A stretch of 64,000 nt of DNA from the NCBI GenBank assembly GCA_021108075.1, contig JAIORP010000135.1:87938-151937 (forward strand), given 5' to 3'. The translations under genes and the position numbers were made by a program. Position 1 is the stretch's first letter. Every line of letters begins with the position of its first letter. This document shows, in pieces, positions 7,169-48,816 of the stretch. The notes under the pieces are model-generated. The model saw nothing but the letters and a program-made list of their open reading frames with translations. It made no database searches and had not been told where the DNA came from. Origin of the DNA: Candidatus Omnitrophota bacterium. Its GTDB lineage: Bacteria > Omnitrophota > Gorgyraeia > Zapsychrales > Zapsychraceae.

Positions 7169-7192
7169 TGATTATGTCGTTCTTATAATATT

Positions 7193-9460: not shown

Positions 9461-9471
9461 AGAGTCTTAGC

Positions 9472-10962: not shown

Positions 10963-10974
10963 AGGCTTAAAAAC

Positions 10975-11853: not shown

Positions 11854-11857
11854 AAAC

Positions 11858-14012: not shown

Positions 14013-14037
14013 CGTAAATTTAACACAGGGATATCAC

Positions 14038-15219: not shown

Positions 15220-16370
15220 TCAATGATATTACCCTGCGTGATGGTGAACAGGCGCCCGGAGTCAATTTTTATCCGGAGGAAAAATGCCGCATAGCCGAAC
15301 AGCTGCTAAAAATGAACATTCCTATTATTGAAGCCGGTTTTGCGATTGCTTCGGACAACGACTTTGATGCGATTCAAATGATCAGCAAAAGATTCGGACA
15401 CAAATCCGGTCCGGTCATCTGTTCCATGGCACGCGCGACCCTCAGAGATATTGAACGCGCAGCAGAATCCGTCCGCCCCGCGGCCAGAGGCCGGGTCCAG
15501 GTCGTTTTGGGCACGTCGGACATCCATCTCAAATACAAATTCAAAAAAACACGCAATGAAATCAAAGATATCGCGCATAAAACGGTCCGTTACGCCAAAA
15601 CACTTTGTGCTGATATCGAATTCGCCGCGGAAGACGCGACAAGAAGCGATATTGATTTTTTAACGGAAGTCACGCAAATCGCGGTTGCGGCCGGGGCAAC
15701 GACCATTGAGTTACCGGACACAGTTGGATATGCCACTCCGCACGAATATGCGCATCTCGTTCAACATATCGTTGATCATATGGATCCGGGCATCACCGTT
15801 GCCACACACTGTCACAATGATTTAGGCCTGGCGGTCGCCAACACCCTTTTTGGTATTATGGCCGGCGCTTCCCAGGCGGAAGTAACGATAAACGGCATCG
15901 GTGAACGGGTGGGCAATGCCTCAGCCGAAGAAGTCATTATGGCGTTAAAAACACGACAGGATTACTTTCAAATCCAATTGGATATCAATACCAAAGAAAT
16001 CATGAAGACATCAGAATTAGTGGAAGAACTATCGGCCATCAAGGTTGCAAACAATAAAGCCATCGTCGGCTGCAATGCCTTTCGCCATGAATCAGGCATC
16101 CACCAGGACGGTTTGATCAAAAACAAAAGCACCTATCAAATCATGGAACCGGAAGACATCGGTGTTAAAGGGTATGGTCTTGTCTTAGGAAAGCTTTCCG
16201 GCCGGCATGCCTTGCAGGATAAGATCCAATCATTCGGGCTCACAATGAATGATCAGGAGTTTGACCGATTCTACATGGCATTCAAAGATGTGGCCTCTAA
16301 AAAAAAGTTTCTGTTAGAAGAAGATCTTCTCAAACTCATAAAGAAGCATGGCTATGAAACGATCAAGTGA
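15204..16370 (+). CDS. LeuA/NifV/CimA-family (HMGL-like, DRE-TIM metallolyase) acyl-CoA:2-oxoacid condensing enzyme. Short form without the LeuA regulatory domain.
   Basis: ITLRDGEQAPG and HCHNDLGLAVANTL motifs. 388 aa. Confidence 0.75.
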   Translation: MRPILINDITLRDGEQAPGVNFYPEEKCRIAEQLLKMNIPIIEAGFAIASDNDFDAIQMISKRFGHKSGPVICSMARATLRDIERAAESVRPAARGRVQVVLGTSDIHLKYKFKKTRNEIKDIAHKTVRYAKTLCADIEFAAEDATRSDIDFLTEVTQIAVAAGATTIELPDTVGYATPHEYAHLVQHIVDHMDPGITVATHCHNDLGLAVANTLFGIMAGASQAEVTINGIGERVGNASAEEVIMALKTRQDYFQIQLDINTKEIMKTSELVEELSAIKVANNKAIVGCNAFRHESGIHQDGLIKNKSTYQIMEPEDIGVKGYGLVLGKLSGRHALQDKIQSFGLTMNDQEFDRFYMAFKDVASKKKFLLEEDLLKLIKKHGYETIK

Positions 16371-17247
16371 TTACCATTCAATTCCAGACCTCGCGCAATT
16401 GTTTTCAAAAGAACAATCGATCGGTATATTTGAAAAAATGTGCCTGTGCCGTTATTTCGAACTGGAGGTGGCCAATGCCTATGAAAAAAGTCTTATCGCC
16501 AGTCCGATCTACTTATCCATCGGGCAGGAATCCATTTCAGCAGCTTTGTCGACGGTGATTTCTAATTTTACCATTTTTGCTCAACACCGCTGCCACTCGG
16601 CCTATTTAGCCTTCGGGGGAGACCAGCATAAAATTGTCGACGAACTCCTCGGGCGTCCAACAGGCTGCGCTTTTGGGCAAGGCGGTTCACCCATGCTACA
16701 GGACCCGGATATCCCCATGATCGGACATCATGGATTAATCGGTGAAAATATTCCTCTGGCGGTCGGTTATGCCTTAGGCAGTACTCAGCCAACTTTATGT
16801 CTTTTCGGAGATGCGGCAGCAGAAGAAGATTATGCCCTGACCGCTATGGGATTTGCGTCAAAACATCAACTGCCCGTTTTATTTGTTTGTGAAGACAATG
16901 ATTTGTCCATTTTAACGCCGACAGAGGTCCGCCGAAACTGGGAAATCTGCGATGTTGCGCAGGCCCTGAACATGCCAGCTGTTGATATCACGGATGACCC
17001 CTGGTTAATCGCTCATCACGCGCAAGAACTCATCCAGTCATTGCCAGCGTTCATCAACTGCCGCACCTGCCGGCATTACTGGCACGCAGGGGTCGGCATT
17101 GATCATGAACCGGAATGGGACCGTCTTCAACTCGTTAAAGATCAATTAAAGACGTTAAGCATTAACGCCCAGGACATCGAAGAACAGACAAAACAAGACA
17201 TAAAAGGATTATGGGAAAAACTGTTGCCGAAACAATTAAAGATCTAA
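16348..17247 (+). CDS. TPP-binding subunit of a split TPP-dependent enzyme (2-oxoacid dehydrogenase E1-alpha-like or transketolase N-terminal-like)
   Basis: GDAAAEEDYALTAMGFASKHQLPVLFVCEDNDLSI matches the TPP-binding GDG...E...N motif region. Confidence 0.65.
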   Translation: MAMKRSSDYHSIPDLAQLFSKEQSIGIFEKMCLCRYFELEVANAYEKSLIASPIYLSIGQESISAALSTVISNFTIFAQHRCHSAYLAFGGDQHKIVDELLGRPTGCAFGQGGSPMLQDPDIPMIGHHGLIGENIPLAVGYALGSTQPTLCLFGDAAAEEDYALTAMGFASKHQLPVLFVCEDNDLSILTPTEVRRNWEICDVAQALNMPAVDITDDPWLIAHHAQELIQSLPAFINCRTCRHYWHAGVGIDHEPEWDRLQLVKDQLKTLSINAQDIEEQTKQDIKGLWEKLLPKQLKI

Positions 17248-18140
17248 CCTTTGATCACTTAAAAAATAATAACGGACTGCTCTTAGGCCAGGCCATTACG
17301 GCCGTGGGCTATGTGAACCATACTGTTCCGAAAAATTGTCCGGGCATCATTGAACTCTCCATGGCTGACGTCGCGGGTTCAGGCATCGCAGTTGGAACAG
17401 CTCTTGCGGGTCGAAGACCTATTTTAGTTATCCGCTTCCAGGACTTTTTGATCTTAAACGGCAGTATGTTGATCAACTATGCCGCCAAATCAAAAGATAT
17501 GTTTCAACAGCCCTCACCGATCTTCGTGCGCGCATTAGCCATTGAAGGACACGGTGCCGGACCGGTTCACTCAGCAAAACTTCATAATATCTTCATGCAT
17601 TTTCCCGGATTCCGTGTTTGGGCGCCGATAACACCGAATGAATATAAACAAACATGGACAGACTTTTTGGAGCATGATGATCCGGTCATCTCCTGCGAAC
17701 ATCGCAGCAGCTTTTCTTCTCGTGATGAATATGCGAATGAAATAGAACCGGCTGCGGATATCACCCTATTCGGCATATCTGTTGGACGGACGAACATCAT
17801 AAAAGCAGCGCGGACATTACGGGCTGAGGGGATCACGGTCAACCTTGTTCATATCGTCCAACTCAAACCACTTGTACTGCAACAATCATGGCTTGAGGCT
17901 TTAAGCCGCAGCCATTGCGGACTGGTGGTCGACACGGGCTTTGAAACTTGCGGGGCCGGCCAAAACATTGCCTATGAATTGATGTTAAAGACGAATAAAC
18001 CTGTTCAGGCATTGGGACTCAAGGACGTCTCTGTAGGCGTTTCCGGGGATAAAGAAAATTTAACACCCCGTCCGGAGCAAATTGTTACAGCGGTTAAAAA
18101 TAGGCTAAGAAACCGGTCAGGTCCGATGCGGTCAGCTTAA
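17211..18140 (+). CDS. Pyrimidine-binding/C-terminal subunit of the split TPP enzyme (E1-beta-like or transketolase C-terminal-like)
   Basis: Transketolase_pyr-like region (SMADVAGSGIAVGTALAGRRP...FQDFLILNGSMLINYAAK) plus a C-terminal domain. Overlaps the upstream subunit gene in another frame. Confidence 0.65.
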   Translation: MGKTVAETIKDLTFDHLKNNNGLLLGQAITAVGYVNHTVPKNCPGIIELSMADVAGSGIAVGTALAGRRPILVIRFQDFLILNGSMLINYAAKSKDMFQQPSPIFVRALAIEGHGAGPVHSAKLHNIFMHFPGFRVWAPITPNEYKQTWTDFLEHDDPVISCEHRSSFSSRDEYANEIEPAADITLFGISVGRTNIIKAARTLRAEGITVNLVHIVQLKPLVLQQSWLEALSRSHCGLVVDTGFETCGAGQNIAYELMLKTNKPVQALGLKDVSVGVSGDKENLTPRPEQIVTAVKNRLRNRSGPMRSA

Positions 18141-18158: not shown

Positions 18159-18893
18159 ATGTCAGTATTTAATTTTCAAAATAAAACCGCGGTCGTAACA
18201 GGGGGAACACGCGGTATCGGCCGAGCGGTCGCGAAAGGTCTCCTCGAATCAGGAGCAAAAGTGATCGTAACGGGCACAAAGGAATCACCCGCCTGGTTAA
18301 ACAACTATCCCCGGGCACAGCATATGACATTAGACTTTCTTAAAGAAAACAGCCTGTCATCATTTATGGCGTCGTTTCCACCGGAACAGGCGGTCGACAT
18401 TCTCATTAATAATGCCGGTATCCACATACCAAAACCTTTTACAGAACTAACACAACAGGACTGGGAAGATATCATGAGAATCAATATTATCGGCCCGGCA
18501 GATCTCATCAATAAAATGATCCCCTTTATGCGAAAAAATGTGTCCGGAAACATCCTCAATATGAGTTCGATCGCTGGATTCATCGCCCGTCCGGGATCAA
18601 CGGCTTACTCGGCGAGCAAATCCGCCTTAAATGCTTTCACCCGGTCACTCGCTTTAGAACTGGCAAAGGATAACATCAAGGTTAACGCTCTTTGCCCTGG
18701 AACAACAGAAACAGATATGGTTAAAGAACAAATGGATGAAGACCGGCGCAAACATTTTCTATCACTTATTCCGATGCAGCGTTTTGCCCTTCCTGAAGAA
18801 ATCGCCCAATGGGCTTTGTTCCTTTGTTCAGACTTGAATACTTATATGACCGGGCAAACGGTCATTGTGGACGGCGGGGCAACCATACAATAA
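18159..18893 (+). CDS. Short-chain dehydrogenase/reductase (FabG-like SDR)
   Basis: TGGTRGIGRAVA Rossmann motif and YSASK catalytic motif. Strong AGGAGG-like RBS. Confidence 0.85.
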   Translation: MSVFNFQNKTAVVTGGTRGIGRAVAKGLLESGAKVIVTGTKESPAWLNNYPRAQHMTLDFLKENSLSSFMASFPPEQAVDILINNAGIHIPKPFTELTQQDWEDIMRINIIGPADLINKMIPFMRKNVSGNILNMSSIAGFIARPGSTAYSASKSALNAFTRSLALELAKDNIKVNALCPGTTETDMVKEQMDEDRRKHFLSLIPMQRFALPEEIAQWALFLCSDLNTYMTGQTVIVDGGATIQ

Positions 18894-18926
18894 AAAAAGA
18901 TTACAAGAATAAAAAAGAGGTATCAA

Positions 18927-20081
18927 ATGAAAAAAATCGCCATGATACCTGTTCGACTGAACAGTCAACGGGTTCCAAATAAAAATTTAAGGCTGCTCAA
19001 TGGCAAACCGATGGTCGCCTATATCATCGAAACGGCATTGGCAACAAATACTTTTGATGAGGTTTACCTGAATTCCGAAGCGGAAATATTTAAGGAAATA
19101 GCCGACCAATATGGCATTAAATTTTACCACCGTCCGGCAGAACTGGCCTCAGACCGGTCAACGAGTGAGGACTTTGTCTATGACTTCATCAAAAATGTTG
19201 AAGGGGATGTGCTCTACCAGCTGCTGGCGACATCACCATTAATCACTCCCATGGAAATCACACATTTTGTGCATGATATGTCCCTGAATGCATTAGACAC
19301 GCTGGTTTCAATCGTGAATCATCGCATCGCGAGCCTCTACAAAAAGCAACCGGTTAATTACGGATTAACAGAAAAATTGAAGAGCTCTCAGACGATGGTC
19401 CCTGTCCAAACATACGCGACGGTTCTTATGGCCTGGCGATATGAAAACTTCAAGGCCAATATGGAAACGCATGGATGCGCTTATTATGGTGGTGACGGTC
19501 GGATTGGATATTATGAATTGAAGGGATTATCCGCCATTGACGTGGACCAGGAAGAAGATTTTATTTTAGCTGAAATCGCGATGCAATATCGAAATGAATC
19601 CCGTCAGGATCAACCGCGGTATTACACATCCAAAAAACAAAAAAACGAACATAGTGAAGTGGATGTTCCGGAAATCCTACGCAAAGACGGCGTCAGCCTT
19701 CGCGATTTTGAACACGAAAATCAACCCTTATTTCACGTGCAGCAGATCATTGATAAGATGGGAACCAACCAATCCTGGTCATACCGGGTGGTTAACACGG
19801 AAAGTAACAGCGCAACCTTAATATCACAAATGCCCGGAGGAGGGAATCGACGGCATTATCATCCAGACTGGAATGAATGGTGGTACATCATCAAAGGTCA
19901 ATGGAAATGGGAAATTGAAGGCAAAAAAATCATTGTCAAAAAAGGTGATATCGTTTTTATCGAAAAGAATAAATGGCACCAAATTACGGCGATGGGAGAA
20001 GAATCTGCTATCCGTCTGGCTGTCAGCCGTGGTGATGTGCCGCACATTTACACAGAGGACATTGAAAACCCATGCCAATAA
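18927..20081 (+). CDS. Acylneuraminate/Kdo-type cytidylyltransferase-family domain (CTP_transf_3) fused to a C-terminal cupin domain
   Basis: N-terminal MKKIAMIPVRLNSQRVPNKNL...GKP (CMP-sugar synthetase family). C-terminal HYHPDWNEWWYIIKG...KWHQI cupin-like motifs. Confidence 0.7.
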   Translation: MKKIAMIPVRLNSQRVPNKNLRLLNGKPMVAYIIETALATNTFDEVYLNSEAEIFKEIADQYGIKFYHRPAELASDRSTSEDFVYDFIKNVEGDVLYQLLATSPLITPMEITHFVHDMSLNALDTLVSIVNHRIASLYKKQPVNYGLTEKLKSSQTMVPVQTYATVLMAWRYENFKANMETHGCAYYGGDGRIGYYELKGLSAIDVDQEEDFILAEIAMQYRNESRQDQPRYYTSKKQKNEHSEVDVPEILRKDGVSLRDFEHENQPLFHVQQIIDKMGTNQSWSYRVVNTESNSATLISQMPGGGNRRHYHPDWNEWWYIIKGQWKWEIEGKKIIVKKGDIVFIEKNKWHQITAMGEESAIRLAVSRGDVPHIYTEDIENPCQ

Positions 20082-20848
20082 AAAATAATCAAGAAATCAC
20101 ACAATTATTTCAACCGTTATTACAAGAAGCCCGAGAACTGATACAGAAAAAACCTCTTAAAATTTATGAATCACAACAAAAAGATATTTCCATAAACTTG
20201 GATCTGATGCTGCATGACCTGATAAAAAATTTCTTATCCCAACACTTTTCCTTTGATGTCCTATCCGAAGAAGATAAGGACCAGTGCGACTTTCTGAAGC
20301 AAACACAACCCGTCTGGATCATTGATCCGCTGGATGGATCTTTCAATGTCAGCCGTCAGATCCCGATGTCTTGCCTATCGTTGGGGTTGTGGTATGATGA
20401 TACGCCCCGGTGGGGGCTTATTTACGATTTCAATCGGGATGAATTGTTTATCGGCTCACTGCCGGAGAATGAAATTTGTGCCCGGTCCGGTGCCTGGTGC
20501 AATCAGCAACCGATACAGCCGGCGCGTACCCCGGTCGCTGAAGGCGTTTTATCCACGGGCTACCCTTCATGGCGGGATTTCTCCGATGACGCCTTAAAAC
20601 GCTCCATTCAGCAGGTTCAATCCTGGAAGAAAATTCGCATGATTGGTTCAGCCGCGCTTTCCCTGGCCTGGGTTGGATGTGGACGGGTCGATGCGTATAT
20701 GGAAGAGGATATCCGGATTTGGGATGTCGCAGCAGGGTTGGCCATCGTGCAGGCGGCCGGGGGCCAGTTTGTCATGCAAAAAAACCAAAAAACAAATTTT
20801 GTCACGGTAAAAGCCGCCAATGGAACGATACCCGTAAATGAAATTTAA
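20072..20848 (+). CDS. Inositol-monophosphatase-family sugar phosphatase (IMPase/CysQ-like)
   Basis: WIIDPLDGSFN and WDVAAGLAIVQAAGG motifs. Confidence 0.75.
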   Translation: MPIKNNQEITQLFQPLLQEARELIQKKPLKIYESQQKDISINLDLMLHDLIKNFLSQHFSFDVLSEEDKDQCDFLKQTQPVWIIDPLDGSFNVSRQIPMSCLSLGLWYDDTPRWGLIYDFNRDELFIGSLPENEICARSGAWCNQQPIQPARTPVAEGVLSTGYPSWRDFSDDALKRSIQQVQSWKKIRMIGSAALSLAWVGCGRVDAYMEEDIRIWDVAAGLAIVQAAGGQFVMQKNQKTNFVTVKAANGTIPVNEI

Positions 20849-20880
20849 TCCCCGGCGATTTTAAAGGAGACAATGAATAT

Positions 20881-21870
20881 ATGATTAAAGTCGGAATCAT
20901 TGGTTTCGGAAAAATGGGAAAAATAAGGGCGCATGCGATAAAAGCGAACGCTCTCGGACAGATTGTGTCAATTTTTGAAGTTGATAAAAATCTCATTTCT
21001 GATGAATATCCTTTTGTTGAAAGCGTAGACGACATATTCAATAATGAGGACATCAATACCCTTTTCATTTGCACACCCAATTATTTAAACAAAGATCTCA
21101 CGATAAGAAGCCTTCAGGCCGGCAAACATGTCTTTTGTGAAAAACCGCCGGCATTTAATGAGCAAGATATGCAGGCCGTCATTGCCGTTGAAAAAAAAAC
21201 GGACACGAAGTTGATGTACGGGTTTAATCATCGGCACCATACCAGCATCAAGCACATTAAACACCTGATTGATTCAGGAGAATACGGGAACATCTTATGG
21301 ATGCGCGGACGTTATGGTAAAAGCACGGACACGTCTTTTTTTGATACCTGGCGGGCCAAAAAAAAACTTGCGGGCGGGGGCATTTTATTAGATCAGGGCA
21401 TTCACATGTTAGATCTTTTCCTGTGTTTTGCCAAGGACTTTCATGAGACACATTCTTTTGTGTCCAATTTATATTGGAAGTTGGAGATCGAAGACAATGT
21501 CTTTGCCATCCTCAGAAACAATAACAATGGCATTGTTGCCTCATTGCATTCAACGATGACACAATGGCGCCATCTTTTTTCTCTGGAAATCTTCCTGGAA
21601 AAAGGATATTTTGTTTTAAATGGACTAAAAACTTCAAGTGGTACTTACGGCGATGAAATATTAACGATAGCTAAGAATCGCTCGACCGCTCCGGCGGCAA
21701 CATGGGAAGATGAAGAAAAAATCGTCTATCAAACCGACCGGTCCTGGCGCTCAGAAATCGATTATTTCTTTGATGCCATCTTAAAAGACACGCCCATTGA
21801 AGTCGGCAATTCTTTAGACGCCCTTAAATTGATGGCGATCACAGATAAGCTATACCAGGAAAGGACCTAA
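20881..21870 (+). CDS. Gfo/Idh/MocA-family NAD(P)-dependent oxidoreductase
   Basis: N-terminal IKVGIIGFGKMGK Rossmann region, EKP motif, typical length. Confidence 0.75.
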   Translation: MIKVGIIGFGKMGKIRAHAIKANALGQIVSIFEVDKNLISDEYPFVESVDDIFNNEDINTLFICTPNYLNKDLTIRSLQAGKHVFCEKPPAFNEQDMQAVIAVEKKTDTKLMYGFNHRHHTSIKHIKHLIDSGEYGNILWMRGRYGKSTDTSFFDTWRAKKKLAGGGILLDQGIHMLDLFLCFAKDFHETHSFVSNLYWKLEIEDNVFAILRNNNNGIVASLHSTMTQWRHLFSLEIFLEKGYFVLNGLKTSSGTYGDEILTIAKNRSTAPAATWEDEEKIVYQTDRSWRSEIDYFFDAILKDTPIEVGNSLDALKLMAITDKLYQERT

Positions 21871-21871
21871 G

Positions 21872-22435
21872 ATGGAGGATAAACAATTCATTGAGACCTA
21901 TTTTCAAACGTTTCAACAATGTATTCAGCCCGGCGGGATCGAAGAAGACATGCTGAAAATGCGGGATATCATGCTTGCGGCTAACCGCGCGAGAAAAAAA
22001 ATTATCTTCGCCGGCAACGGAGCAAGCGCGACAATTGCCAGTCATTGCGCCTTAGATTACACAAAACAAGCGGGTATCCGTTCAACATGTTTTAACGAAG
22101 CCGCATTATTAACGGCTTTTGGAAACGATTTTGGTTATGAAATGTGGCTGCAAAAAGCCCTGGAATTTTATGCCGATAAAGAAGATTTGATCGTCTTAAT
22201 CAGTTCTAGTGGCAAATCGCCGAATATCATCAACGCCGCACAATATGCTAAAGACAAAAAATTTACAATCGTAACATTGACAGGTTTTGATCCCAATAAT
22301 CCTTTAAAAAAAATGGGTGATATCAACTTCTGGGTAGAAAGCAAGTCCTATAATATGATTGAATGCACACATATGTTCTGGCTTGTTCTTGTTTGTGACC
22401 TTATTATCGGCAAATCAGAGTACAAAACATCGTAA
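21872..22435 (+). CDS. SIS-domain sugar-phosphate isomerase (GmhA-like sedoheptulose-7-phosphate isomerase type)
   Basis: 187 aa, single SIS domain, GNGASATIASHCALD and ISSSGKSPNII motifs. Confidence 0.7.
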   Translation: MEDKQFIETYFQTFQQCIQPGGIEEDMLKMRDIMLAANRARKKIIFAGNGASATIASHCALDYTKQAGIRSTCFNEAALLTAFGNDFGYEMWLQKALEFYADKEDLIVLISSSGKSPNIINAAQYAKDKKFTIVTLTGFDPNNPLKKMGDINFWVESKSYNMIECTHMFWLVLVCDLIIGKSEYKTS

Positions 22436-22515
22436 CCCCCGATGAACATCCGGCCTGCGGCAGACACAGAGACCAGAATTGAAACTCGGCCGTCGATGCG
22501 ATTTTTGGATTAATT

Positions 22516-23976
22516 ATGTTAGACCTCCTTATTATAAAACCAGGCGCACAGCGCTTTCTATACCAAAAACTTAGCTCGTCTATTAGCGCGATCGAACCGC
22601 CACTGTGGGGACTATTGCTCGCAAACTTTATCCGTCAAAATGGATTTCAGGTTCAAATCAAAGATGCTGAAATTGACACGATTCAATCGATCCAAGAGAC
22701 GATAACAACCCGTAACCCCAAATTAATCGCCATCGTCGTATCAGGGACCAATCCTTCGGCCTCAACCATGAACATGGTCGGCGCAACGGCCATGATTCGT
22801 CATCTTCGACAATATTTTCCCGGGCTGAAAATCATCCTAATCGGATTACACCCTTCGGCGTTACCAGAACAGACGTTACGGGATGAAAATGTGGATTATG
22901 TCTGCGAGGGAGAAGGGTTTGAGACCACCCTGCTCTGGCTGCAGGGATCAAAATTAGAAGGAATCCCAGGTTTATGGTATAAAGAAGGGCTTCAAATAAA
23001 GCATCAAGAACGGGCGTGCTTAGTTGATCCCAACAGGATGCCCATGCCTGCCTGGGATCTCGTCGACTTAAACCGCTACCGCGCGCATAATTGGCACTGT
23101 TTTGGAAGCCTTGATCAACGCCAGCCATACGCGGTCATATATACGAGCCTCGGTTGTCCGTATCATTGTGACTTCTGCTGTATTCACGCGATATTCGGGC
23201 AGCCCAATATTCGTTACCGGTCCATCAACCTCATCATGGAAGAAGTGGATCTATTGGTCAATGATTATCATGTTAAAAACATAAAAATTCTTGATGAATG
23301 TTTTGTACTTGATCAGCAACATGTGTTAGAATTTTGTGAAGCGATGATCCGCCGCAAGTATTCGGTCAATATGTGGGCTTACGCCCGGATTAACACCATC
23401 AACGAAAAAATTCTTTTAAAAATGAAAGCGGCCGGCTTTCGTTGGATCGGCTATGGGATCGAATCAGGAACACCCGCGGTTTTAAGTGGTGTCCATAAAG
23501 CGCAATACGATAACCAAAAAATTTTTGACGTCGTCAAATTAACAAAAAAATCAGGGCTAAATGTCGGGGGGAATTTTATCTTTGGACTCCCGAATGACAA
23601 TATCGCGGGGATGCGGCGCACATTAGCCTTAGCCGTTCAACTCAATTGTGAATACGCGAACTTTTATACGGCGATGGCTTATCCGGGGTCAAAACTCTAT
23701 GATAAAGTCAGACATAAAGCCGGGCTATTACCCCGGACATGGGAAGGATATTCACAATTTGGAACAGAATGTTTTCCATTGCGCAATGATTTCTTAACAC
23801 AAACGGACATACTGGCTTTCCGCGATCAAGCTTTTATCGACTATTTTTCCCGGGCTGAATACCTTGATATGATTGAGCGAAAATTTGGAAGTCAGACAAT
23901 GCTTCATATCAATAAGATGACACAATACAAATTAAAGAGGACACTGCTAGAAGTCGACCAACAACAGCTGGCTTAA
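22516..23976 (+). CDS. B12-binding domain radical SAM protein (class B radical SAM, methyltransferase-like)
   Basis: N-terminal cobalamin-binding-like Rossmann region. CPYHCDFC (CxxxCxxC) radical SAM cluster motif. Confidence 0.8.
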   Translation: MLDLLIIKPGAQRFLYQKLSSSISAIEPPLWGLLLANFIRQNGFQVQIKDAEIDTIQSIQETITTRNPKLIAIVVSGTNPSASTMNMVGATAMIRHLRQYFPGLKIILIGLHPSALPEQTLRDENVDYVCEGEGFETTLLWLQGSKLEGIPGLWYKEGLQIKHQERACLVDPNRMPMPAWDLVDLNRYRAHNWHCFGSLDQRQPYAVIYTSLGCPYHCDFCCIHAIFGQPNIRYRSINLIMEEVDLLVNDYHVKNIKILDECFVLDQQHVLEFCEAMIRRKYSVNMWAYARINTINEKILLKMKAAGFRWIGYGIESGTPAVLSGVHKAQYDNQKIFDVVKLTKKSGLNVGGNFIFGLPNDNIAGMRRTLALAVQLNCEYANFYTAMAYPGSKLYDKVRHKAGLLPRTWEGYSQFGTECFPLRNDFLTQTDILAFRDQAFIDYFSRAEYLDMIERKFGSQTMLHINKMTQYKLKRTLLEVDQQQLA

Positions 23977-23986
23977 AGGAGAAATT

Positions 23987-24982
23987 ATGATCATCAGTCG
24001 TACACCGTTTAGAATTTCATTTTTTGGTGGAGGAACAGATTACCCCGCATGGTATGAAAAAAACGGAGGAGCGGTCTTATCAACGACTATCGATAAATAT
24101 TGTTATTTAACCTGCCGCTCTCTGCCCCCTTTCTTTGACCATCGCTACCGCATTGTTTATTCAAAGATTGAATTAGTCAAAGACGTCCACAAAATTCAAC
24201 ACCCGGTTGTCCGCGTATGCCTGGAAAACATGGATGTCCCGCAAGGGATTGAACTGCATCACGATGGGGATTTACCTGCCCGGACAGGCTTAGGTTCAAG
24301 CTCTGCTTTTACGGTTGGGCTGCTACACTCCCTCTACGCGCTCAAAGGGATCATGCCGACCAAAAAACGTCTTGCGGATGAAGCCATACATTTTGAAAGG
24401 GAAGTATTGAGTGAAGCTGTCGGCTCACAGGACCAGGTCGCTGTCGCTCATGGCGGGTTTAATAAAATTTCTTTCAGTCAAACCGGGGACTATCAAATAG
24501 ATCCCGTGATCTTAGACCGTGACCGCCTGGATAATTTGCAAAATCATATCATGCTTTACTTCACGGGTTTTTCCAGAATCGCCTCCAAGGTCGCACGGAA
24601 GCAAATTGAAAACACCCCTAAAAAGCAAAAAGAACTGGCCACCATGCAATCTATGGTCGACACGGCCATTGACATCTTATGCAATCGCAGGGACCTCACT
24701 GAATTCGGCCGGTTGCTGCATGAAACATGGATGCTGAAAAGATCGCTGACAGATAAAGTGTCAACAAACGATATCGATCAAATATATGCTGACGCCCGTT
24801 CTTCCGGCGCTATCGGAGGTAAACTCATTGGAGCTGGCGGGGGCGGATTCATGATTCTCTTTGTTCCGCCAAAGCTCCAGAATAAAGTTCGCGTGAAGTT
24901 AAACAATTTGTTGGAAGTAAAATTCAATTTTGAAACTTCTGGCACGCAAATTATTTTTCATAAAGAAGATCCTATCATATAA
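23987..24982 (+). CDS. GHMP-family sugar kinase (D-glycero-D-manno-heptose-7-phosphate kinase HddA-like)
   Basis: GHMP motif LPARTGLGSSSAFTVG. C-terminal GAGGGGF motif. Confidence 0.75.
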   Translation: MIISRTPFRISFFGGGTDYPAWYEKNGGAVLSTTIDKYCYLTCRSLPPFFDHRYRIVYSKIELVKDVHKIQHPVVRVCLENMDVPQGIELHHDGDLPARTGLGSSSAFTVGLLHSLYALKGIMPTKKRLADEAIHFEREVLSEAVGSQDQVAVAHGGFNKISFSQTGDYQIDPVILDRDRLDNLQNHIMLYFTGFSRIASKVARKQIENTPKKQKELATMQSMVDTAIDILCNRRDLTEFGRLLHETWMLKRSLTDKVSTNDIDQIYADARSSGAIGGKLIGAGGGGFMILFVPPKLQNKVRVKLNNLLEVKFNFETSGTQIIFHKEDPII

Positions 24983-24987
24983 CAAAC

Positions 24988-25923
24988 ATGTTGCAATTTG
25001 ATCAAACTGATTATTTGCCAAAATCGTCCCAACGAATTGAGCGGTTATACCGGATCGTCAACAATAGACCGGCCGCAATATTATGTCCGGGTCCGTCCAT
25101 CAACACGCTGGAGCAACGCATCCATGACCTGAAAAAAGAAAATATTTGTTGGGTTTCACTGAATCATTACACGGTCATTGAAAAAAATATTCTCAATCAA
25201 ATCAATAAGAACCTGTCGGTCTTATTTTGCAGCGCCCGGGAATTCTTACCGACATTATACGGTGATATTCAAAATTTCTTAAACCGTGATGATCAGAATA
25301 TCTTTATCTCTTCTTTTTGGCGTGAAGCATATGGACTCATGGATTCCTCATTCCAGCTCAAAGAGTTTATTAAAGAGTACGATGAGAAAATGTTATTTTT
25401 TTCAATCCAACAAAATGACAAAGTGCCCAATGAACACTTCCCGTTACATCTCATGCACAGCAACAGTTTGTTAGGGCTCATCCAGATGATATTACTCGGC
25501 CAACCTCAAGCGGTCTATCTGTTTGGGGCGGATGGGTATTGTCCGGATGATCAACCGCATTATTATCGGGCAGAGGATGACGGGCATAGGGGGGATGTCC
25601 ACAAAACAATCAAGGTCGGAAAACTTGAAGACTTAAAATACGACACGAATAAACTGTTTAACCCGGTTGCCCGCAAAGCGATAAGAAACGTCACGCAAAC
25701 ATTCAAACTACAAGAAACCAGCATATACAACTGCTCCCCTGAAAGTTATTATCTGCCATTTCCAAAGATTGCCTATGATGATGCCCTAAAACTTTTAACC
25801 CGGAAACAGGTGTTTAATCCAAAGATGGATCTGCGAACCCCGGAAGAAAAAAAACTCGTTCAATCCTATCAGCGAAGCGGATTTGTCAGCAAATTAAAAT
25901 CACTATTTCTTAGGAACGCATAA
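24988..25923 (+). CDS. Hypothetical protein, possibly a DUF115/MptE-like domain. Function unknown.
   Basis: LCPGPSI and LFGADGY motifs are reminiscent of DUF115. No firm motif. Confidence 0.35.
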   Translation: MLQFDQTDYLPKSSQRIERLYRIVNNRPAAILCPGPSINTLEQRIHDLKKENICWVSLNHYTVIEKNILNQINKNLSVLFCSAREFLPTLYGDIQNFLNRDDQNIFISSFWREAYGLMDSSFQLKEFIKEYDEKMLFFSIQQNDKVPNEHFPLHLMHSNSLLGLIQMILLGQPQAVYLFGADGYCPDDQPHYYRAEDDGHRGDVHKTIKVGKLEDLKYDTNKLFNPVARKAIRNVTQTFKLQETSIYNCSPESYYLPFPKIAYDDALKLLTRKQVFNPKMDLRTPEEKKLVQSYQRSGFVSKLKSLFLRNA

Positions 25924-39135: not shown

Positions 39136-40247
39136 GGATTGATGCACGCGAAATTCAATCAGGAGTCTGCACGGGAATAGGCAGGCCTCTGCTGAATTTT
39201 TTAAAATTTTTTCCGACACTGATGCCGCGCGACCAATGTCTATTATTCTCAAACCAACCCATTCCTTTAAAATTTCCTGAACCTATCCGTAATATTGTTA
39301 TCCCCGAAAACAATACATGGCTGTGGGATCAATGGATACTGCCGCAGGCCATACACACAAAAAAAGTCACAATTTTTTATTCACCGTATTACAAAATCCC
39401 TGTCATAGCAAAGTGCCCGACCATTGCCGCGATCTTAGATCTCATGTATCTTGTTTATCCTGCCTATAAAAAAGAAATGTCCGTCCTTAAAAAACATTAT
39501 TATTACTCATTCGGCAAACACATGGCCCACAAAGCAACCAGAATATTAACGTGTTCCCATCATTCTAAAAAGGATATCGTTCAGCTTTACCATATCGACC
39601 CCAAAAAAATCGTCACCATCCCTTTAAGCATCAGCTCAATTTATCGACCGGAAAAAGATCACAATAAGATCCGGGCCTTCAGAAAAAAAAATGGTCTGGA
39701 ACGTCCATACCTTTTATATCTCGGGAATTTTAAAATCCATAAAAATGTCCGGACATTGATTCAGGCCTTCAACGACATCCATGACCGACATCCAGACCTG
39801 ACCCTTGTCCTCGCAGGACCAAAGACGCATGAATATTCAGACTTGAAAAAGAAAATATCTGAGTTAAAATTGAATGATCATGTGCGCTTTATCGGTAAAA
39901 TAATGGAAGACGATCAACCGCATCTTCTATATTCAGCCGCGGACATCTTCATAATGCCTTCGCTGTACGAGGGTTTTGGATTGCCCCCCGCTGAAGCAAT
40001 CGCCTGTGGAACGCCTGTTATTGCCGCAAAGACGGCATCGCTACCGGAAGTCGTAGGGGAGGCGGGGTTCCTCGTGAACGCTCAAGACTCAAACGAATTA
40101 GCCCGGGCCATGATAGCGGTACTCAAAGATCAAAACCTGAAGGATCGTATGGTCCAAAAGGGTTTCAAACATATTCAATCATTTGAAGAAGAACGCGTTG
40201 CTCAACAAATGGCAAACCTTTTTATATCCGTAAAAAATGCCGCCTAA
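39126..40247 (+). CDS. Glycosyltransferase family 4 (GT-B)
   Basis: [30 protein letters not shown] (E-x7-E). Confidence 0.8.
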
Positions 40248-41277
40248 ACAAATTGACTTAAAAAAAATCAAAAAAATATTATTTGTCGTGATGGGTGGCC
40301 TTGGAAACTTGATTCTAACCATTCCGGCGTTAAAAACATTGCGTATCAACATCCCCCGGGCAAAAATTACATTGCTGTTAGGCGAACCTTATATAGAAAA
40401 TATTATCAAAGATGAAAACCTTTATGACGATATTTTGTTATTAGACCGCCGGGGGAAAACGAAAATGACCCATGTCCTGGACATGGTTAAACAGGCCCGG
40501 AACCATCAATTTGATCTTGCCATCGTCGCCAGTCACACGAACGCGTTCAAATCAAGCTTCCTGTTGTTCTGCATGCGTATTCCTCTTCGGCTCGGACAAG
40601 ATATTAACGGACAAAGTTTTTTTTATACCCATAAAATCCCTTTAGAACAAGACACACATGAAACAGATGGCACATGCCAGGTTGTCGGACAATTAGGTCT
40701 TCAACGGGTCATGGACTCGCCTCAGTTAACCCCGACACCCCGGAGCGCTGAATTGGCCCAACAGTTCTTACACGACCGCGGGATAAATTCTAAAGAGAAT
40801 CTGATCGGAATTCATCCGGGATCCGGCTTCAAACAAAAATATAAACGCTGGTCACACCATAAATTCGCTTCTCTCTGCGATCAATTGATCGATCAATACC
40901 AGGCCCAAATTGTTATCACGGGCGGTCCATCAGAAGTGAGCCTTGCCAACGATATTTCTAAAATCATGAAAGGATATCCGGTCAATGCCGCCGGAAAATT
41001 GTCGCTCAACCATACAGCCGCGCTGATCCAACATTGCAACTTATTTATCAGTAATGATAGCGGGCTGGCCCATATCGCCGCAGCCGTCCAGACACCATTG
41101 ATTGTTTTATTCGGTTCGACCAATGAAAAAAGAATCGCGCCGCGGGGAAAAAATATCCATATCCTGCGAAGAAAGAAGACGTCCAGAAAAACACCGCCCA
41201 GCATGCTCATTAACGCGATAACAGAAACCGATGTTTTAAATCAAGTGAAATCCATAATAAAAACAAAACAATCATGA
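40237..41277 (+). CDS. Glycosyltransferase family 9 (heptosyltransferase-type)
   Basis: ILFVVMGGLGNLILTIPALKTL N-terminal motif. GNDSGLAHIAAAVQTPLIVLFGSTN C-terminal motif. Both typical of GT9. Confidence 0.8.
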   Translation: MPPKQIDLKKIKKILFVVMGGLGNLILTIPALKTLRINIPRAKITLLLGEPYIENIIKDENLYDDILLLDRRGKTKMTHVLDMVKQARNHQFDLAIVASHTNAFKSSFLLFCMRIPLRLGQDINGQSFFYTHKIPLEQDTHETDGTCQVVGQLGLQRVMDSPQLTPTPRSAELAQQFLHDRGINSKENLIGIHPGSGFKQKYKRWSHHKFASLCDQLIDQYQAQIVITGGPSEVSLANDISKIMKGYPVNAAGKLSLNHTAALIQHCNLFISNDSGLAHIAAAVQTPLIVLFGSTNEKRIAPRGKNIHILRRKKTSRKTPPSMLINAITETDVLNQVKSIIKTKQS

Positions 41278-43153: not shown

Positions 43154-44206
43154 ATGAAATTGATTGTTACTGGTGGAGCGGGATTAGTGGGATCTCATTG
43201 CGCGGAATACTTTGCCAATAAAGAACATCACGTCACTGTCATCGACAACCTCATGCGCTCACAAATTTTCGGAGCGGGAAATAAAACCGTCGAATACAAT
43301 TGGCAATATCTTAAAAAATATAAAAACATTTCATTGATCAAACAAGATGTGCGTGACTTGCCGGCTATGCTGCGGATCTTTAAACGCATTAAACCCCATG
43401 TTGTCATTCATACCGCAGGGCAACCCGGGGTCAAATTTTCATTGAACAATCCGATTGAAGACTATTCTATTAACGCGACCGGAACCCTGAACACGCTGGA
43501 AGCCCTCAAACAATCCAATAAAAAAGGCACATTCATTTATTGCTCGACAAATAAAGTTTTCGGTGACAATGTGAATAAAGTCACCCTGAAGGAAAAGAAA
43601 AAAAGATATGAATTCCGCAACATCTCCGGCATAAAAGAAAATTTCTCCATTGATTTAACCGGACACACCCCATACGGCGTCTCCAAGTTAACCGGGGATT
43701 TGTACACACAAGATTACGCGAAGACACATGGGCTCAAATGCGGCGTCTTTCGCATGAGCTGCATCTACGGCACCCGTCAGTTTGGTTTTGAAGACCAGGG
43801 ATGGCTCGCCTGGTTTGCCAACCGGTATTTTCTCAAAAAACCGGTCACAATCTTCGGCGATGGGAAACAAACCCGCGATGTCTTATGGGTGGAGGACCTG
43901 GTGAGGGCCTTTGAAGCTTTTATCCAATCCGATTACCAGGGGGAAGTCTTTAATATGGGAGGGGGGCCAAAAAACACATTGTCATTGCTCGAACTAACCG
44001 ACATTCTCGAAACGGTTTCTGACCGCGATATCAAAATCAAGTTCGGCGCATGGCGTAAATTTGATCAAAAGGTTTATATTTCTGACATTACAAAAGCGAA
44101 AAGAATGCTCAAATGGAAACCAACTGTGCGCCCCCAACAAGGCATCGAGCGGTTGTACCGTTGGATCGAAGAGAATGAAAAAATATTTCATTCATTTCTA
44201 AAATAA
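43154..44206 (+). CDS. NAD-dependent sugar epimerase/dehydratase (extended SDR)
   Basis: VTGGAGLVGSH Rossmann motif and YGVSK catalytic YxxxK. Confidence 0.8.
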   Translation: MKLIVTGGAGLVGSHCAEYFANKEHHVTVIDNLMRSQIFGAGNKTVEYNWQYLKKYKNISLIKQDVRDLPAMLRIFKRIKPHVVIHTAGQPGVKFSLNNPIEDYSINATGTLNTLEALKQSNKKGTFIYCSTNKVFGDNVNKVTLKEKKKRYEFRNISGIKENFSIDLTGHTPYGVSKLTGDLYTQDYAKTHGLKCGVFRMSCIYGTRQFGFEDQGWLAWFANRYFLKKPVTIFGDGKQTRDVLWVEDLVRAFEAFIQSDYQGEVFNMGGGPKNTLSLLELTDILETVSDRDIKIKFGAWRKFDQKVYISDITKAKRMLKWKPTVRPQQGIERLYRWIEENEKIFHSFLK

Positions 44207-47004: not shown

Positions 47005-48816
47005 ATGAATACTTACAAAGTATGTATCCTGGCGGCCGGAACAGGACGCCGATTAGGACGACTATCGGATAAAATGAATAAAGCCCTGTTACCGATCAAA
47101 TCAAAGGCGATCATCTCACACATCATTGAAAAATTTGACAAAAAGATCGAAATTATCATTGCGGTGGGGCACCAAAAAGAGACCCTGATCCAATACGTCC
47201 GTTGCGCCCATCCTGACCGTAGAATTAAATTCACTCCGGTCAAGCGTTTTAAAGGTGACGGCACCGGGCCGGGTTTTTCTCTCTTGCAATGCCGCCAGCA
47301 ATTAAAGTGCCCCTTTATTTTATTCACGGCTGACACGCTCGTAACAGAAGATATCCCGCCGCCGACCAATAACTGGTACGGTGTCGCGCCCATCAAGAAG
47401 CCTGAGTTGTATTGCACAGCCCGGGTCATTAACCATGTCGTCTGCCATATCGATGACAGGACAAAAACAAGGAACAAATTCGCGTTTATCGGAGTGGCCG
47501 GCGTTCTGGATCATGATTTCTTTTTTGAGAAGTTACAGGAAGATAAGACCCTGATCATGAATGAGATCCCACTATCCAATGGTTTTAAAGCCCTGCTTAC
47601 GAAAAGATTAAAAGCAAAATATTTCACCTGGTATGACACGGGCACGCTTGAAGAATACGCGCAAGCCATTCAAGCCTTAGCTCCTGAGGATCAATACATC
47701 AATGTCACAAACATGGATCAGTTCACGTACAAGGTGGAAGACCGGCATATTTTCCTGCTGACGGACCGCAAGGATTCGCAAAGCATCCTGCACCGCCAGA
47801 GGCTTTTAACAAATTTAATCCCTGAGATGCAGAGTGTGTCAGATAATGTCTTTACCATCCAAAAACAAACGGCTGAACCATTCTATGAAAACCTCAGACC
47901 GCAATTGTTTCTTAAACTTTACCAGTGGTTACAGACGCAGCTTTGGGACCGGTATGAGCTGTCGGATGAATTCCAAAAAACGTTCCAGCAAAAATGTAAA
48001 AATTTGTACCAGCACAGGACAAACAAAATTATCCAGGACTTTCAAAACGAACAGAAACAGAAAGACGGCTTTCACTATATCAACGACGCGCGTGTTCCTC
48101 CCCTCGCGGCCCTTTTAAATAGAGTGAATTGGAAAAAAATATTGAACGGAACGCCCGCCCGCGTGCATGGAAAACTATCCTTAATGAACGTCGACGTGAA
48201 GACCGTTAATCAAAGAAAACACTTTTCACTCAACAACAGTTTTACTGATTTTGACGGTTTAATCGAGTATGGTGATCTGTATTGGGACCTTGCCGCGCTT
48301 TATACGAGCATTCGTTTAAACTTCCTATTATTGCGCAAAGGGGCTTTCAGCCTATACCGGCAGCAAAGAAAGATTGAATTGGACTACCAGATCAATCAAA
48401 AACTGTTAGATATTCAAAAAATTTTCCTGAATTGCGTGGCTGAAGATGGTTACGATGTCCAAAAAATATCCATTTTATCATCGATTTACTGTTTTCATCT
48501 GATACCGGAATATGTCAGCCCCTTGAACGAATTCTTATTTTACTTTGCCAAAAAGGCCTTGTTTGAAAGCCTCGGGAAGAAGCAAAATGAAGAAAATCCC
48601 GAGAAGAGGCCGAATGCAGAAAGTCCCGAAAAAAAACAGAATGAAGAAAGTCCCGAGAAGAGACAGAATGCAAAAAGGCCCGGGAAGAGACAGAATACAA
48701 GAAGGCCCGGAAAAAGGCCGAATACAAGAAGGCCCGGGAAGAGGCCGAATGAAGAAAATCCCGGGAAGAGACAGAATGAAGAAAATCCCGGGAAGAGGCC
48801 GAATGAAGAAACGTAA
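47005..48816 (+). CDS. Fusion protein: sugar-phosphate nucleotidyltransferase domain + kinase-like (APH/ChoK-fold-like) region + C-terminal 9-aa tandem-repeat tail
   Basis: N-terminal CILAAGTGRRLGRLSDKMNKALLPI (NTP_transferase G-x-G-x-R-L signature). Central TDFDGLIEYGDLYWDLAAL resembles the DxE/Brenner region of choline/aminoglycoside kinases. Tail of KRQNEENPG-type repeats. Confidence 0.6.
   Translation: MNTYKVCILAAGTGRRLGRLSDKMNKALLPIKSKAIISHIIEKFDKKIEIIIAVGHQKETLIQYVRCAHPDRRIKFTPVKRFKGDGTGPGFSLLQCRQQLKCPFILFTADTLVTEDIPPPTNNWYGVAPIKKPELYCTARVINHVVCHIDDRTKTRNKFAFIGVAGVLDHDFFFEKLQEDKTLIMNEIPLSNGFKALLTKRLKAKYFTWYDTGTLEEYAQAIQALAPEDQYINVTNMDQFTYKVEDRHIFLLTDRKDSQSILHRQRLLTNLIPEMQSVSDNVFTIQKQTAEPFYENLRPQLFLKLYQWLQTQLWDRYELSDEFQKTFQQKCKNLYQHRTNKIIQDFQNEQKQKDGFHYINDARVPPLAALLNRVNWKKILNGTPARVHGKLSLMNVDVKTVNQRKHFSLNNSFTDFDGLIEYGDLYWDLAALYTSIRLNFLLLRKGAFSLYRQQRKIELDYQINQKLLDIQKIFLNCVAEDGYDVQKISILSSIYCFHLIPEYVSPLNEFLFYFAKKALFESLGKKQNEENPEKRPNAESPEKKQNEESPEKRQNAKRPGKRQNTRRPGKRPNTRRPGKRPNEENPGKRQNEENPGKRPNEET
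48577..48813 (+). repeat. Imperfect 27-bp tandem repeat (about 8.8 copies) encoding 9-aa K/R/Q/N/E/P-rich units at the 3' end of the 47005 gene
   Basis: Units KKQNEENPE, KRPNAESPE, KKQNEESPE, KRQNAKRPG, KRQNTRRPG, KRPNTRRPG, KRPNEENPG, KRQNEENPG. Causes the artefactual overlapping ORFs at 48545-48934 (+) and 48515-48823 (-). Confidence 0.85.

Follow-up and report, generated by a model that had tools for sequence, protein, structure and literature searches.

The stretch under study, positions 20072–24982 of a 64,000-nucleotide section of a Candidatus Omnitrophica metagenome-assembled genome (MAG; the whole section is called the window below), encodes an IMPase-family phosphatase, a Gfo/Idh/MocA oxidoreductase, a GmhA-like SIS isomerase, a B12-binding radical SAM enzyme and a GHMP-family sugar kinase. 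These genes and those around them lie on the same strand and are tightly packed, with intergenic gaps of −10 to 81 bp, and a scan of the gene set found promoter-like and terminator-like sites at a frequency not above the shuffled-sequence background. They belong to a surface-glycan island of ~48 kb, formed by a single long plus-strand gene array (2325–50909) and flanked on one side by a large gene, of which the 3′ end is present, and on the other by housekeeping genes (citrate synthase, PepA, NfeD, SPFH, fumarase). An earlier note had read the stretch as one pathway to a nucleoside diphosphate (NDP)-activated heptose. The genes it named are all in place, with the domains it described (open reading frame (ORF) calls, Pfam). 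Comparison with other genomes points to a different arrangement: with a probability of roughly 0.55, two cassettes, each conserved independently of the other, meet in this 4.9-kb stretch of a single long glycan operon. We call these cassette A (18159–22435) and cassette B (22516–24982, probably with further genes scattered in the window).

What does cassette A comprise? Its first gene encodes a short-chain dehydrogenase/reductase (SDR) resembling FabG and glucose-1-dehydrogenase (18159..18893; adh_short_C2, 7e-57; NF005559, 218 bits), which scores 272 bits against a hidden Markov model (HMM) of the SDRs found with Gfo and SIS in 37 other loci. Next comes a fusion protein (18927..20081) of a PF02348 CMP-transferase domain (residues ~1–220; CTP_transf_3, 5.8e-22) and a C-terminal cupin (~290–370; Cupin_2, 1.3e-15). 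This cytidylyltransferase (CT) is kin to KdsB, NeuA and PseF: PseF and KdsB are its best NCBIfam matches (PseF, 79 bits), the nearest solved structures are the CMP-Neu5Ac synthetases 1qwj and 1eyr, and it reaches 286 bits against an HMM of the CTs of the cassette in other loci. The substrates of PF02348-class enzymes are free keto-acid sugars rather than sugar-1-phosphates, which tells against the earlier suggestion that 18927 might activate heptose-1-phosphate. The phosphatase gene (20072..20848, 258 aa; Inositol_P, 1.6e-40) adjoins that of the CT. Its protein, 100% identical to one from a 'Candidatus Omnitrophica bacterium' MAG, falls below every equivalog cut-off in NCBIfam (SuhB, CysQ, HisN, FBPase/IMPase). 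The metal-binding and catalytic motifs are intact, with E66, E67, D85, P86, L87, D88, G89, W217, D218, A220, A221 and G222 invariant in 34 orthologues, and its substrate is predicted from context. Conservation within the cassette is highest for the Gfo/Idh/MocA oxidoreductase (20881..21870, 329 aa; N-terminal domain 5e-21, C-terminal domain 1e-22), with 58–70% identity to its orthologues in 80 metagenome loci; in NCBIfam its best match, IolG, reaches 111 bits, where the cut-off is 355.

The SIS isomerase (21872..22435, 187 aa; SIS_2, 9e-12) had been called GmhA-like, and gmhA (TIGR00441) is indeed its best NCBIfam match, although at 73.9 bits it stays under the equivalog cut-off of 209.45; the kpsF model matches at E = 0.0027. 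Aligned to Burkholderia pseudomallei GmhA, whose H64, E68, Q175 and H183 we take to be the catalytic and Zn-binding residues, the protein keeps the phosphate loop, the N-D motif and His64 and carries Asp for Glu68, Glu for Gln175 and Val for the catalytic His183. Because it shares an invariant set of its own (H58, D62, E164, H167 and the phosphate loop S111-x-S113-G-x-S116) with 69 orthologues, it appears on sequence grounds to represent a distinct GmhA-like subfamily of sugar-phosphate isomerases. Family HMMs built from the other loci match the SDR, CT, IMPase and SIS proteins of the window and find no 2-hydroxyacid dehydrogenase (2HADH), AroB-like protein, cyclase, HpcH, YhcH, class-III aminotransferase or NeuB in it, as expected of a reduced copy of the cassette; SDR 18159 is a possible stand-in for the absent 2HADH. 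No phosphoenolpyruvate- or pyruvate-dependent synthase or aldolase of the KdsA, NeuB or HpcH type turned up in the window, the HMMs of the NeuB and HpcH partners giving no match and the Pfam scans showing no DAHP_synth_1 or NeuB domain.

Cassette A is widespread. Scanning metagenomes with the Gfo protein returned 80 loci, and 83 in total were surveyed by calling ORFs, clustering them and naming the clusters with Pfam and NCBIfam. Gfo is joined by SIS in 70 of the 83 loci, by a 2HADH in 66, by a CT in 41 and by an IMPase in 14; most of those without SIS are short or truncated contigs. Where at least 4 kb are available on both sides (28 loci), the counts are 28 for CT, 26 for 2HADH, 24 for SIS, 18 for an AroB-like enzyme and 8 for IMPase. 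None of the 83 loci contains an orthologue of either the kinase or the radical SAM enzyme, and the single GHMP match across them is a 132-bit relative situated 9 kb off in locus L113. Sugar-1-phosphate nucleotidyltransferases are likewise missing from these loci, which almost always contain a PF02348 CMP-transferase instead.

IMPase orthologues of 45–54% identity are found in Aminicenantes, Marinimicrobia, Verrucomicrobiota and Sediminispirochaeta. All three contexts fetched for them (Aminicenantes, a spirochaete, Marinimicrobia) combine CTP_transf_3, IMPase, 2-Hacid_dh, Gfo and SIS genes in glycan loci with no kinase, at orthologue-level scores against the window genes (Gfo 493–515, SIS 197–236, IMPase 230–266, CT 141–154 bits). 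Since the loci with IMPase, Gfo and SIS hold a PF02348 CT and no kinase, the IMPase is best placed in a CMP-sugar cassette. The earlier note was right that the phosphatase is of the IMPase rather than the HAD type (Pfam detects no HAD phosphatase, GmhB-type or other, among the 50 scanned ORFs of at least 150 aa, up to 61094), but its view of this enzyme as a substitute for GmhB is not supported, as the IMPase recurs in kinase-free cassettes. A further scan of a genome collection with generic IMPase motifs brought up housekeeping SuhB-like genes in nearly all of its 80 loci, L007 alone being informative. One idea, taken from locus L005, was that the IMPase might be a CysQ-type PAP phosphatase serving sulfotransferases; we rejected it, as the window has no sulfotransferase, the CysQ models score below the FBPase/IMPase models, and the gene occupies a fixed slot of the cassette.

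Cultured bacteria have the cassette as well. Plasmid NZ_CP035038.1 of the rhizobium Sinorhizobium fredii SMH12 bears 2HADH-Gfo-SIS-x-IMPase-CT at about 1,544,400–1,549,300 (L174); the record of this plasmid holds one annotated feature only, and the K-antigen or glycan of SMH12 is not listed in the S. fredii KPS review. The 'sru' locus of Leptospira serovar Hardjo, for which the published locus description lists the same set of annotations, probably carries cassette A too; the published paper on Leptospira nonulosonic acid does not mention the cassette A genes.

Several recurrent partners of cassette A bear on its chemistry. They include a PF04199 hydrolase ('cyclase'), an HpcH pyruvate aldolase, a protein of the YhcH/N-acetylneuraminate-anomerase family (DUF386), MptE-like transferases, occasionally NeuB and, in some loci, a 6-phosphogluconolactonase-family protein (173 bits, above the 124-bit cut-off). 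The 2HADH is nearest to PGDH, PdxB and GhrB, dehydrogenases of a type that oxidises C2 of (phospho)aldonic acids. The CT-cupin fusion recurs in 11 loci and a free YhcH/DUF386 gene with a short, unfused CT in 11, both being present only in L150; this near mutual exclusion hints that the cupin does a YhcH-like job.

A second exclusion concerns the phosphatase itself. The AroB-like enzyme of the cassette belongs to TIGR04425, 'putative sugar phosphate phospholyase (cyclizing)' (424 bits, above cut-off). Across the 83 loci, 14 have the IMPase, 36 the pair of SDR and TIGR04425 enzyme, and none has both; in the well-flanked set the two alternatives replace each other at one position of cassettes that are alike in all else (IMPase in 8 and the AroB-like enzyme in 18 of the 28 loci). 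For example, L112 reads CT-cupin, AT3, cyclase, IMPase, 2HADH, Gfo, SIS, and L134 reads CT-cupin, AT3, cyclase, SDR, AroB-like, 2HADH, Gfo, SIS; the same swap separates L112, L113 and L116 (IMPase) from L117, L134, L136, L141 and others (SDR and TIGR04425). The natural substrate of AroB is a heptulosonate 7-phosphate. Because the IMPase trades places with an AroB relative and because the isomerase is GmhA-like, two independent hints, a C7 keto-acid phosphate is the predicted substrate of the IMPase.

The kinase, by contrast with the IMPase, Gfo and SIS genes, belongs to a different neighbourhood. This 331-aa protein (23987..24982; GHMP N and C domains) is an anomeric sugar kinase of the HddA/WcbL clade. 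Its best NCBIfam match is HddA (NF049969), with 142.8 bits where the equivalog cut-off is 600. Among PDB entries it is nearest to heptokinases, with 130 bits for 3k85, 116 for WcbL and 113 for Campylobacter jejuni HddA; fucokinase follows at 52 bits, mevalonate kinases and galactokinases being lower. In the alignment to 4usk, the WcbL residues R13, D22, S118–S120, Q162 and D163 are all conserved. Mutagenesis has shown these WcbL residues to be important, and Q162 has been linked to room for the extra carbon of heptose (PMC4691232). The previous placement of the kinase with HddA and WcbL, apart from the galacto- and mevalonate kinases, thus stands. Its homologues are numerous (at least 8000 scored candidates, all passing E 1e-10), with 62–72% identity among the 120 matches listed.

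We read nine contexts of kinase orthologues (L087, L089, L090, L171–173, L175–177). Eight contain a split transketolase or an E1 alpha/beta pair and seven a DegT aminotransferase, NAD-dependent epimerases/dehydratases are common to them, and in six (L089, L090, L172, L173, L175, L177) the kinase has an orthologue of the radical SAM enzyme as a direct or close neighbour (395–551 bits). A sugar-1-phosphate nucleotidyltransferase of 209–242 aa is found beside or near the kinase in four of the nine. SIS, IMPase and HAD genes are absent within 10 kb of the kinase in all nine. With no kinase orthologue around Gfo and neither isomerase nor phosphatase around the kinase, the four genes are poorly explained as one NDP-heptose pathway.

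In the window, the radical SAM gene (22516..23976, 486 aa; B12-binding, 1e-14; Radical_SAM, 4e-15) sits between the SIS and the kinase genes; the earlier note had passed over it. Its product has a CxxxCxxC motif, is nearest to AprD4 in the PDB and to HpnJ in NCBIfam, and could methylate, deoxygenate or rearrange a sugar. Cassette B probably extends beyond 22516–24982 to the E1 alpha/beta pair at 16348–18140, the dehydratase/epimerase gene 43154 and the DegT gene 48925, and perhaps to 47005, all scattered in the island. The first of these, a thiamine diphosphate-dependent E1 alpha and beta pair (16348–17247 and 17211–18140; E1_dh, 3e-18; Transket_pyr, Transketolase_C), has homologues (127 and 97 bits) that adjoin the kinase–radical SAM pair in L089, a position held by a split transketolase in seven other contexts. 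Gene 43154..44206 encodes an NAD-dependent sugar 4,6-dehydratase/epimerase (GDP_Man_Dehyd/Epimerase, 3e-47; best NCBIfam match dTDP-glucose 4,6-dehydratase, below cut-off), and its orthologue (578 bits) directly adjoins that of the kinase in L087, from Omnitrophota, just before citrate synthase. The two cassettes are interleaved in the window, which has the E1 alpha/beta pair and the SDR first, then CT-IMPase-Gfo-SIS, then radical SAM enzyme and kinase.

Which enzyme would activate the kinase product? The window lacks two companions that the kinase has in other loci, a small nucleotidyltransferase and a 310-aa epimerase, and 20072–24982 contains no nucleotidyltransferase, although the earlier note had counted one among the components of its pathway. 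Within the window, a single candidate could turn the product of the kinase into an NDP-sugar: 47005..48816, a 603-aa protein 22 kb away with a weak N-terminal sugar-1-phosphate nucleotidyltransferase domain (NTP_transferase, 7e-7; NTP_transf_3, 9e-8); it scores 23.7 bits against RmlA in the PDB and is not orthologous to the 209–242-aa transferases beside kinases elsewhere. Cassette B would then be a separate NDP-sugar route, in which the kinase would make a sugar-1-phosphate and the B12-dependent radical SAM enzyme would modify the sugar. Our literature search for a combination of GHMP kinase, radical SAM enzyme and transketolase found no characterisation of such a system.

Two genes come into question for the glycosyl transfer. 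Directly downstream of the kinase, 24988..25923 encodes a 311-aa, probably MptE-like or sialyltransferase-like protein that has no Pfam match by itself. An HMM of the cassette-linked MptE-like proteins matches it at 4.6e-6, and within its family of 353 homologues, 4 of 52 distant members match PF01973. Its AlphaFold2 model (pLDDT 90) gave confident Foldseek matches to ST8SiaIII (probability 0.98) and MptE HPPK (0.95) and to no other structures, at low TM scores of 0.34–0.46; BLASTP against one MptE-like protein of the cassette was not significant, with just the G-P-S and G-x-D motifs aligning. The 24988 protein is a plausible candidate for a CMP-sugar transferase and would be a likelier consumer than the GT9-family protein at 40237..41277 (Glyco_transf_9, 2e-42), to which the earlier note had assigned that part. 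The latter scores 122 bits with heptosyltransferase II, below the cut-off of 134.6. The known donor of GT9 enzymes is ADP-beta-heptose, whereas kinases of the HddA type yield the alpha-1-phosphate. Because of this donor preference and because the scanned ORFs of the window include no HldE- or HldD-type (ADP-heptose) genes, the GT9 protein is an unlikely consumer. MptE-like transferases are known to use CMP-Pse, CMP-Leg, CMP-Neu5Ac and CMP-Kdo (PMC5420450; bioRxiv 10.1101/2020.06.03.131540). Four paralogues of 24988 were seen in L177 (4370–8411), in two tandem pairs split by a formyltransferase gene; they adjoin both a group of CT, methyltransferase, Gfo and radical SAM genes and the kinase cassette.

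The evidence on cassette A slightly favours a route from a ketose phosphate, most likely sedoheptulose-7-phosphate, to a CMP-activated 2-keto-acid (ulosonic) sugar made without an aldolase or synthase. Starting from the observed domain identities, orthology and neighbourhoods, we infer from context its chemical steps, their order and the C7 chain length. The SIS protein would isomerise the ketose phosphate to an aldose phosphate, and Gfo would oxidise C1 to give a phospho-aldonolactone or phospho-aldonate, which is consistent with the lactonase partners in other loci. C2 would then be oxidised to the 2-keto acid, elsewhere by the D-2-hydroxyacid dehydrogenase and here probably by SDR 18159, the sole candidate in the window; such a C2 step has precedents in PdxB, SerA and 2-ketogluconate-6-phosphate reductase, all 2HADH relatives. 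The IMPase would hydrolyse the terminal phosphate of the sugar acid, probably heptulosonate 7-phosphate. Finally, the cupin, or the YhcH-like protein elsewhere, might handle the anomer, the PF02348 domain would form the CMP-sugar, and the MptE-like protein 24988 would transfer it. In the Kdo pathway, KdsC removes the phosphate of Kdo-8-phosphate before CMP activation, and the best reading of the IMPase is as a KdsC analogue with a standing role in a CMP-sugar cassette, not as a GmhB substitute beside HddA.

Pointers to an ulosonic acid are the PF02348 CT near CMP-Neu5Ac synthetases, the YhcH-family or CT-fused cupin protein, the MptE-like transferases, the 6-phosphogluconolactonase-family gene and the 2HADH resembling PGDH, PdxB and GhrB. 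Non-3-deoxy or otherwise unusual 2-ulosonic acids are known from capsules, for example the 4-deoxy-2-hexulosonic acid of Escherichia coli K3; a distant DNA search of E. coli genomes gave no match and hence no link between the K3 locus and the cassette. In its most specific form, which we put forward tentatively, our proposal is that cassette A makes a non-3-deoxy hept-2-ulosonic acid in CMP-activated form, by an as yet undescribed and phylogenetically widespread route, with a heptose derived from sedoheptulose-7-phosphate being oxidised at C1 and C2, the IMPase acting as KdsC analogue and MptE-like transferases using the product. The earlier expectation that Gfo would yield an oxidised heptose derivative is plausible to this extent, as an oxidised C7 product fits; the setting it was given, a single NDP-heptose pathway, is not supported.

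A number of points weigh against this interpretation. The window copy of cassette A has no 2-hydroxyacid dehydrogenase, no lactonase or cyclase and no class-III aminotransferase, all of which its closest relatives possess, and the C2 oxidation falls to the SDR by default because no 2HADH is there. The nearest structures of Gfo oxidise sugars at C1 or C3, or inositol, so it may act at a position other than C1. The survey used crude gene calling (longest ORFs) on metagenome loci that are phylogenetically non-independent, and our literature search found no characterisation of either cassette. The exchange of IMPase for the AroB-like enzyme could be a matter of cyclitol supply. The kinase, finally, keeps its heptokinase residues and lies 1.5 kb from the gene of a GmhA-like protein and an IMPase, in an operon without a HAD phosphatase, and cross-talk between the two cassettes in this organism is possible.

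That last thought can be developed into a model in which cassettes of separate origin have become coupled here, heptose-7-phosphate from the SIS protein feeding both branches and the IMPase removing the 7-phosphate in both. The interleaving of the cassettes would suit it, as would the retained heptokinase residues and the lack, in this window, of the small nucleotidyltransferase and 310-aa epimerase found with the kinase elsewhere; L177, too, unites a CT-Gfo-radical SAM group with the kinase cassette on one contig, along with the four 24988 paralogues. However, the Gfo and CT of L177 are not orthologous to those of the window (43 and 45 bits), and kinases of 62–72% identity manage elsewhere without a neighbouring isomerase or phosphatase, which implies a substrate that does not require them. 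We consider such coupling improbable.

Lower still in our estimation stands the pathway of the earlier note, in which SIS, as GmhA, would give heptose-7-phosphate, the kinase, as HddA, the 1,7-bisphosphate, and the IMPase would replace GmhB on the way to an NDP-heptose that Gfo oxidises and the GT9 enzyme uses. It can draw on the GmhA-like and HddA/WcbL-like character of its first two enzymes (including R13, D22, the three serines, Q162 and D163 of the kinase), on the single tightly packed operon, on the missing HAD phosphatase and on the presence of a GT9 gene. The separation of kinase from SIS and phosphatase across 83 and 9 loci speaks against it; moreover, the isomerase lacks the catalytic His of GmhA and stays under the equivalog cut-off, the adjacent 18927 belongs to the PF02348 CMP-transferases, the transferase domain of the remote 47005 is weak, and the GT9 enzyme would be offered the wrong anomer.

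Least probable is a cyclitol-derived glycan unit, for which the IMPase would free myo-inositol here, an AroB-like enzyme and SDR would make a cyclitol elsewhere and Gfo would be an inositol dehydrogenase: the mutual exclusion in one slot, the annotation of TIGR04425 as a cyclizing phospholyase and the IolG match of Gfo agree with it, but it has no role for an invariant SIS protein with a conserved phosphate-binding loop, leaves the 6-phosphogluconolactonase-family gene, the PGDH/PdxB-like 2HADH, the YhcH-family protein and the PF02348 CMP-transferase unexplained, and has no inositol-phosphate synthase to draw on in any of the loci examined.

How does the proposed CMP-ulosonate route of cassette A relate to known systems? 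With the CMP-Kdo pathway (KdsD/KpsF, KdsA, KdsC, KdsB/KpsU) it would share a SIS isomerase, a phosphorylated keto acid, a dedicated phosphatase and a PF02348 CMP-transferase, the steps being inferred on our side, and its genes, like kpsF and kpsU, are part of an export locus of the capsule or O-antigen type. It differs in having two dehydrogenases in place of a C–C bond-forming enzyme of the KdsA, NeuB or HpcH type, an IMPase-family rather than a HAD phosphatase, a 187-aa GmhA-like isomerase without CBS domains rather than KdsD/KpsF, and a product that is probably a non-3-deoxy C7 acid. The two oxidations recall those of Epd/PdxB, SerA and KguD/GhrB, which lead from aldose phosphate through aldonate phosphate to 2-keto-aldonate phosphate with a C2 step by the D-2-hydroxyacid dehydrogenase family; these, however, are central or catabolic routes with no CMP activation. 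The uncharacterised TIGR04425 cassette ('hypothetical equivalog') agrees with cassette A in its partners (Gfo, SIS, 2HADH, CT-cupin, cyclase, class-III aminotransferase), with the IMPase in the slot of SDR and TIGR04425, but the window has no TIGR04425 gene. The GDP-D-glycero-alpha-D-manno-heptose pathway (GmhA, HddA/WcbL, GmhB, HddC), in turn, resembles the window in its GmhA-like isomerase and in a kinase with catalytic and heptose-pocket residues, whose orthologues elsewhere adjoin a small, HddC-sized nucleotidyltransferase. In contrast to that pathway, isomerase and kinase here fall below the equivalog cut-offs and sit in different conserved cassettes, the isomerase is without the catalytic His, neither GmhB nor an adjacent HddC-like gene is present, and the kinase cassette brings a split transketolase, a B12-dependent radical SAM enzyme and DegT.

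If true, cassette A would add a new, oxidative and aldolase-free logic for keto-acid surface sugars. It would also extend these sugars by a new family, spread over many uncultured phyla and present in the tractable S. fredii SMH12 and probably in Leptospira Hardjo, bacteria in which surface glycans define serotype and symbiosis. Should the more specific hept-2-ulosonic acid route apply, Omnitrophota, Aminicenantes, Marinimicrobia, spirochaetes and Sinorhizobium would possess a new class of surface sugars resembling sialic acid or Kdo, and the AroB-like sister cassettes would yield a deoxy or carbocyclic analogue. The cassette of kinase, radical SAM enzyme and transketolase would be a second uncharacterised sugar pathway. 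In practical terms, automatic labels such as 'phosphoheptose isomerase' and 'inositol monophosphatase' are misleading in glycan loci.

The rest of the island offers some further observations. At 6359–13186, export genes of the Wza/Wzz-kinase/Wzy_C type lie beside genes of the Wzm/Wzt ABC type, the Wzt bearing a C-terminal carbohydrate-binding domain; this side-by-side arrangement suggests that two polymers are exported or that the export system is mixed. Farther on, at 13176–16370 and still inside the glycan operon, there are a Methyltransf_24 gene, a class-I aminotransferase gene (best NCBIfam match GntC-like) and a truncated isopropylmalate-synthase-like gene (388 aa, without the regulatory domain; 520 bits against a cut-off of 532), whose products may jointly supply an uncommon acyl or amino-acid substituent. 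A 695-aa protein with three class-I methyltransferase domains is encoded at 26877–28964. On a syntenic Omnitrophota contig (L087/L088), the interval between a giant protein of 3115 aa and citrate synthase holds the kinase and the 43154 orthologue and nothing else; in the window, the same flanks (27–53524) enclose the ~48-kb glycan island, in which the kinase gene and 43154 are 18 kb apart.

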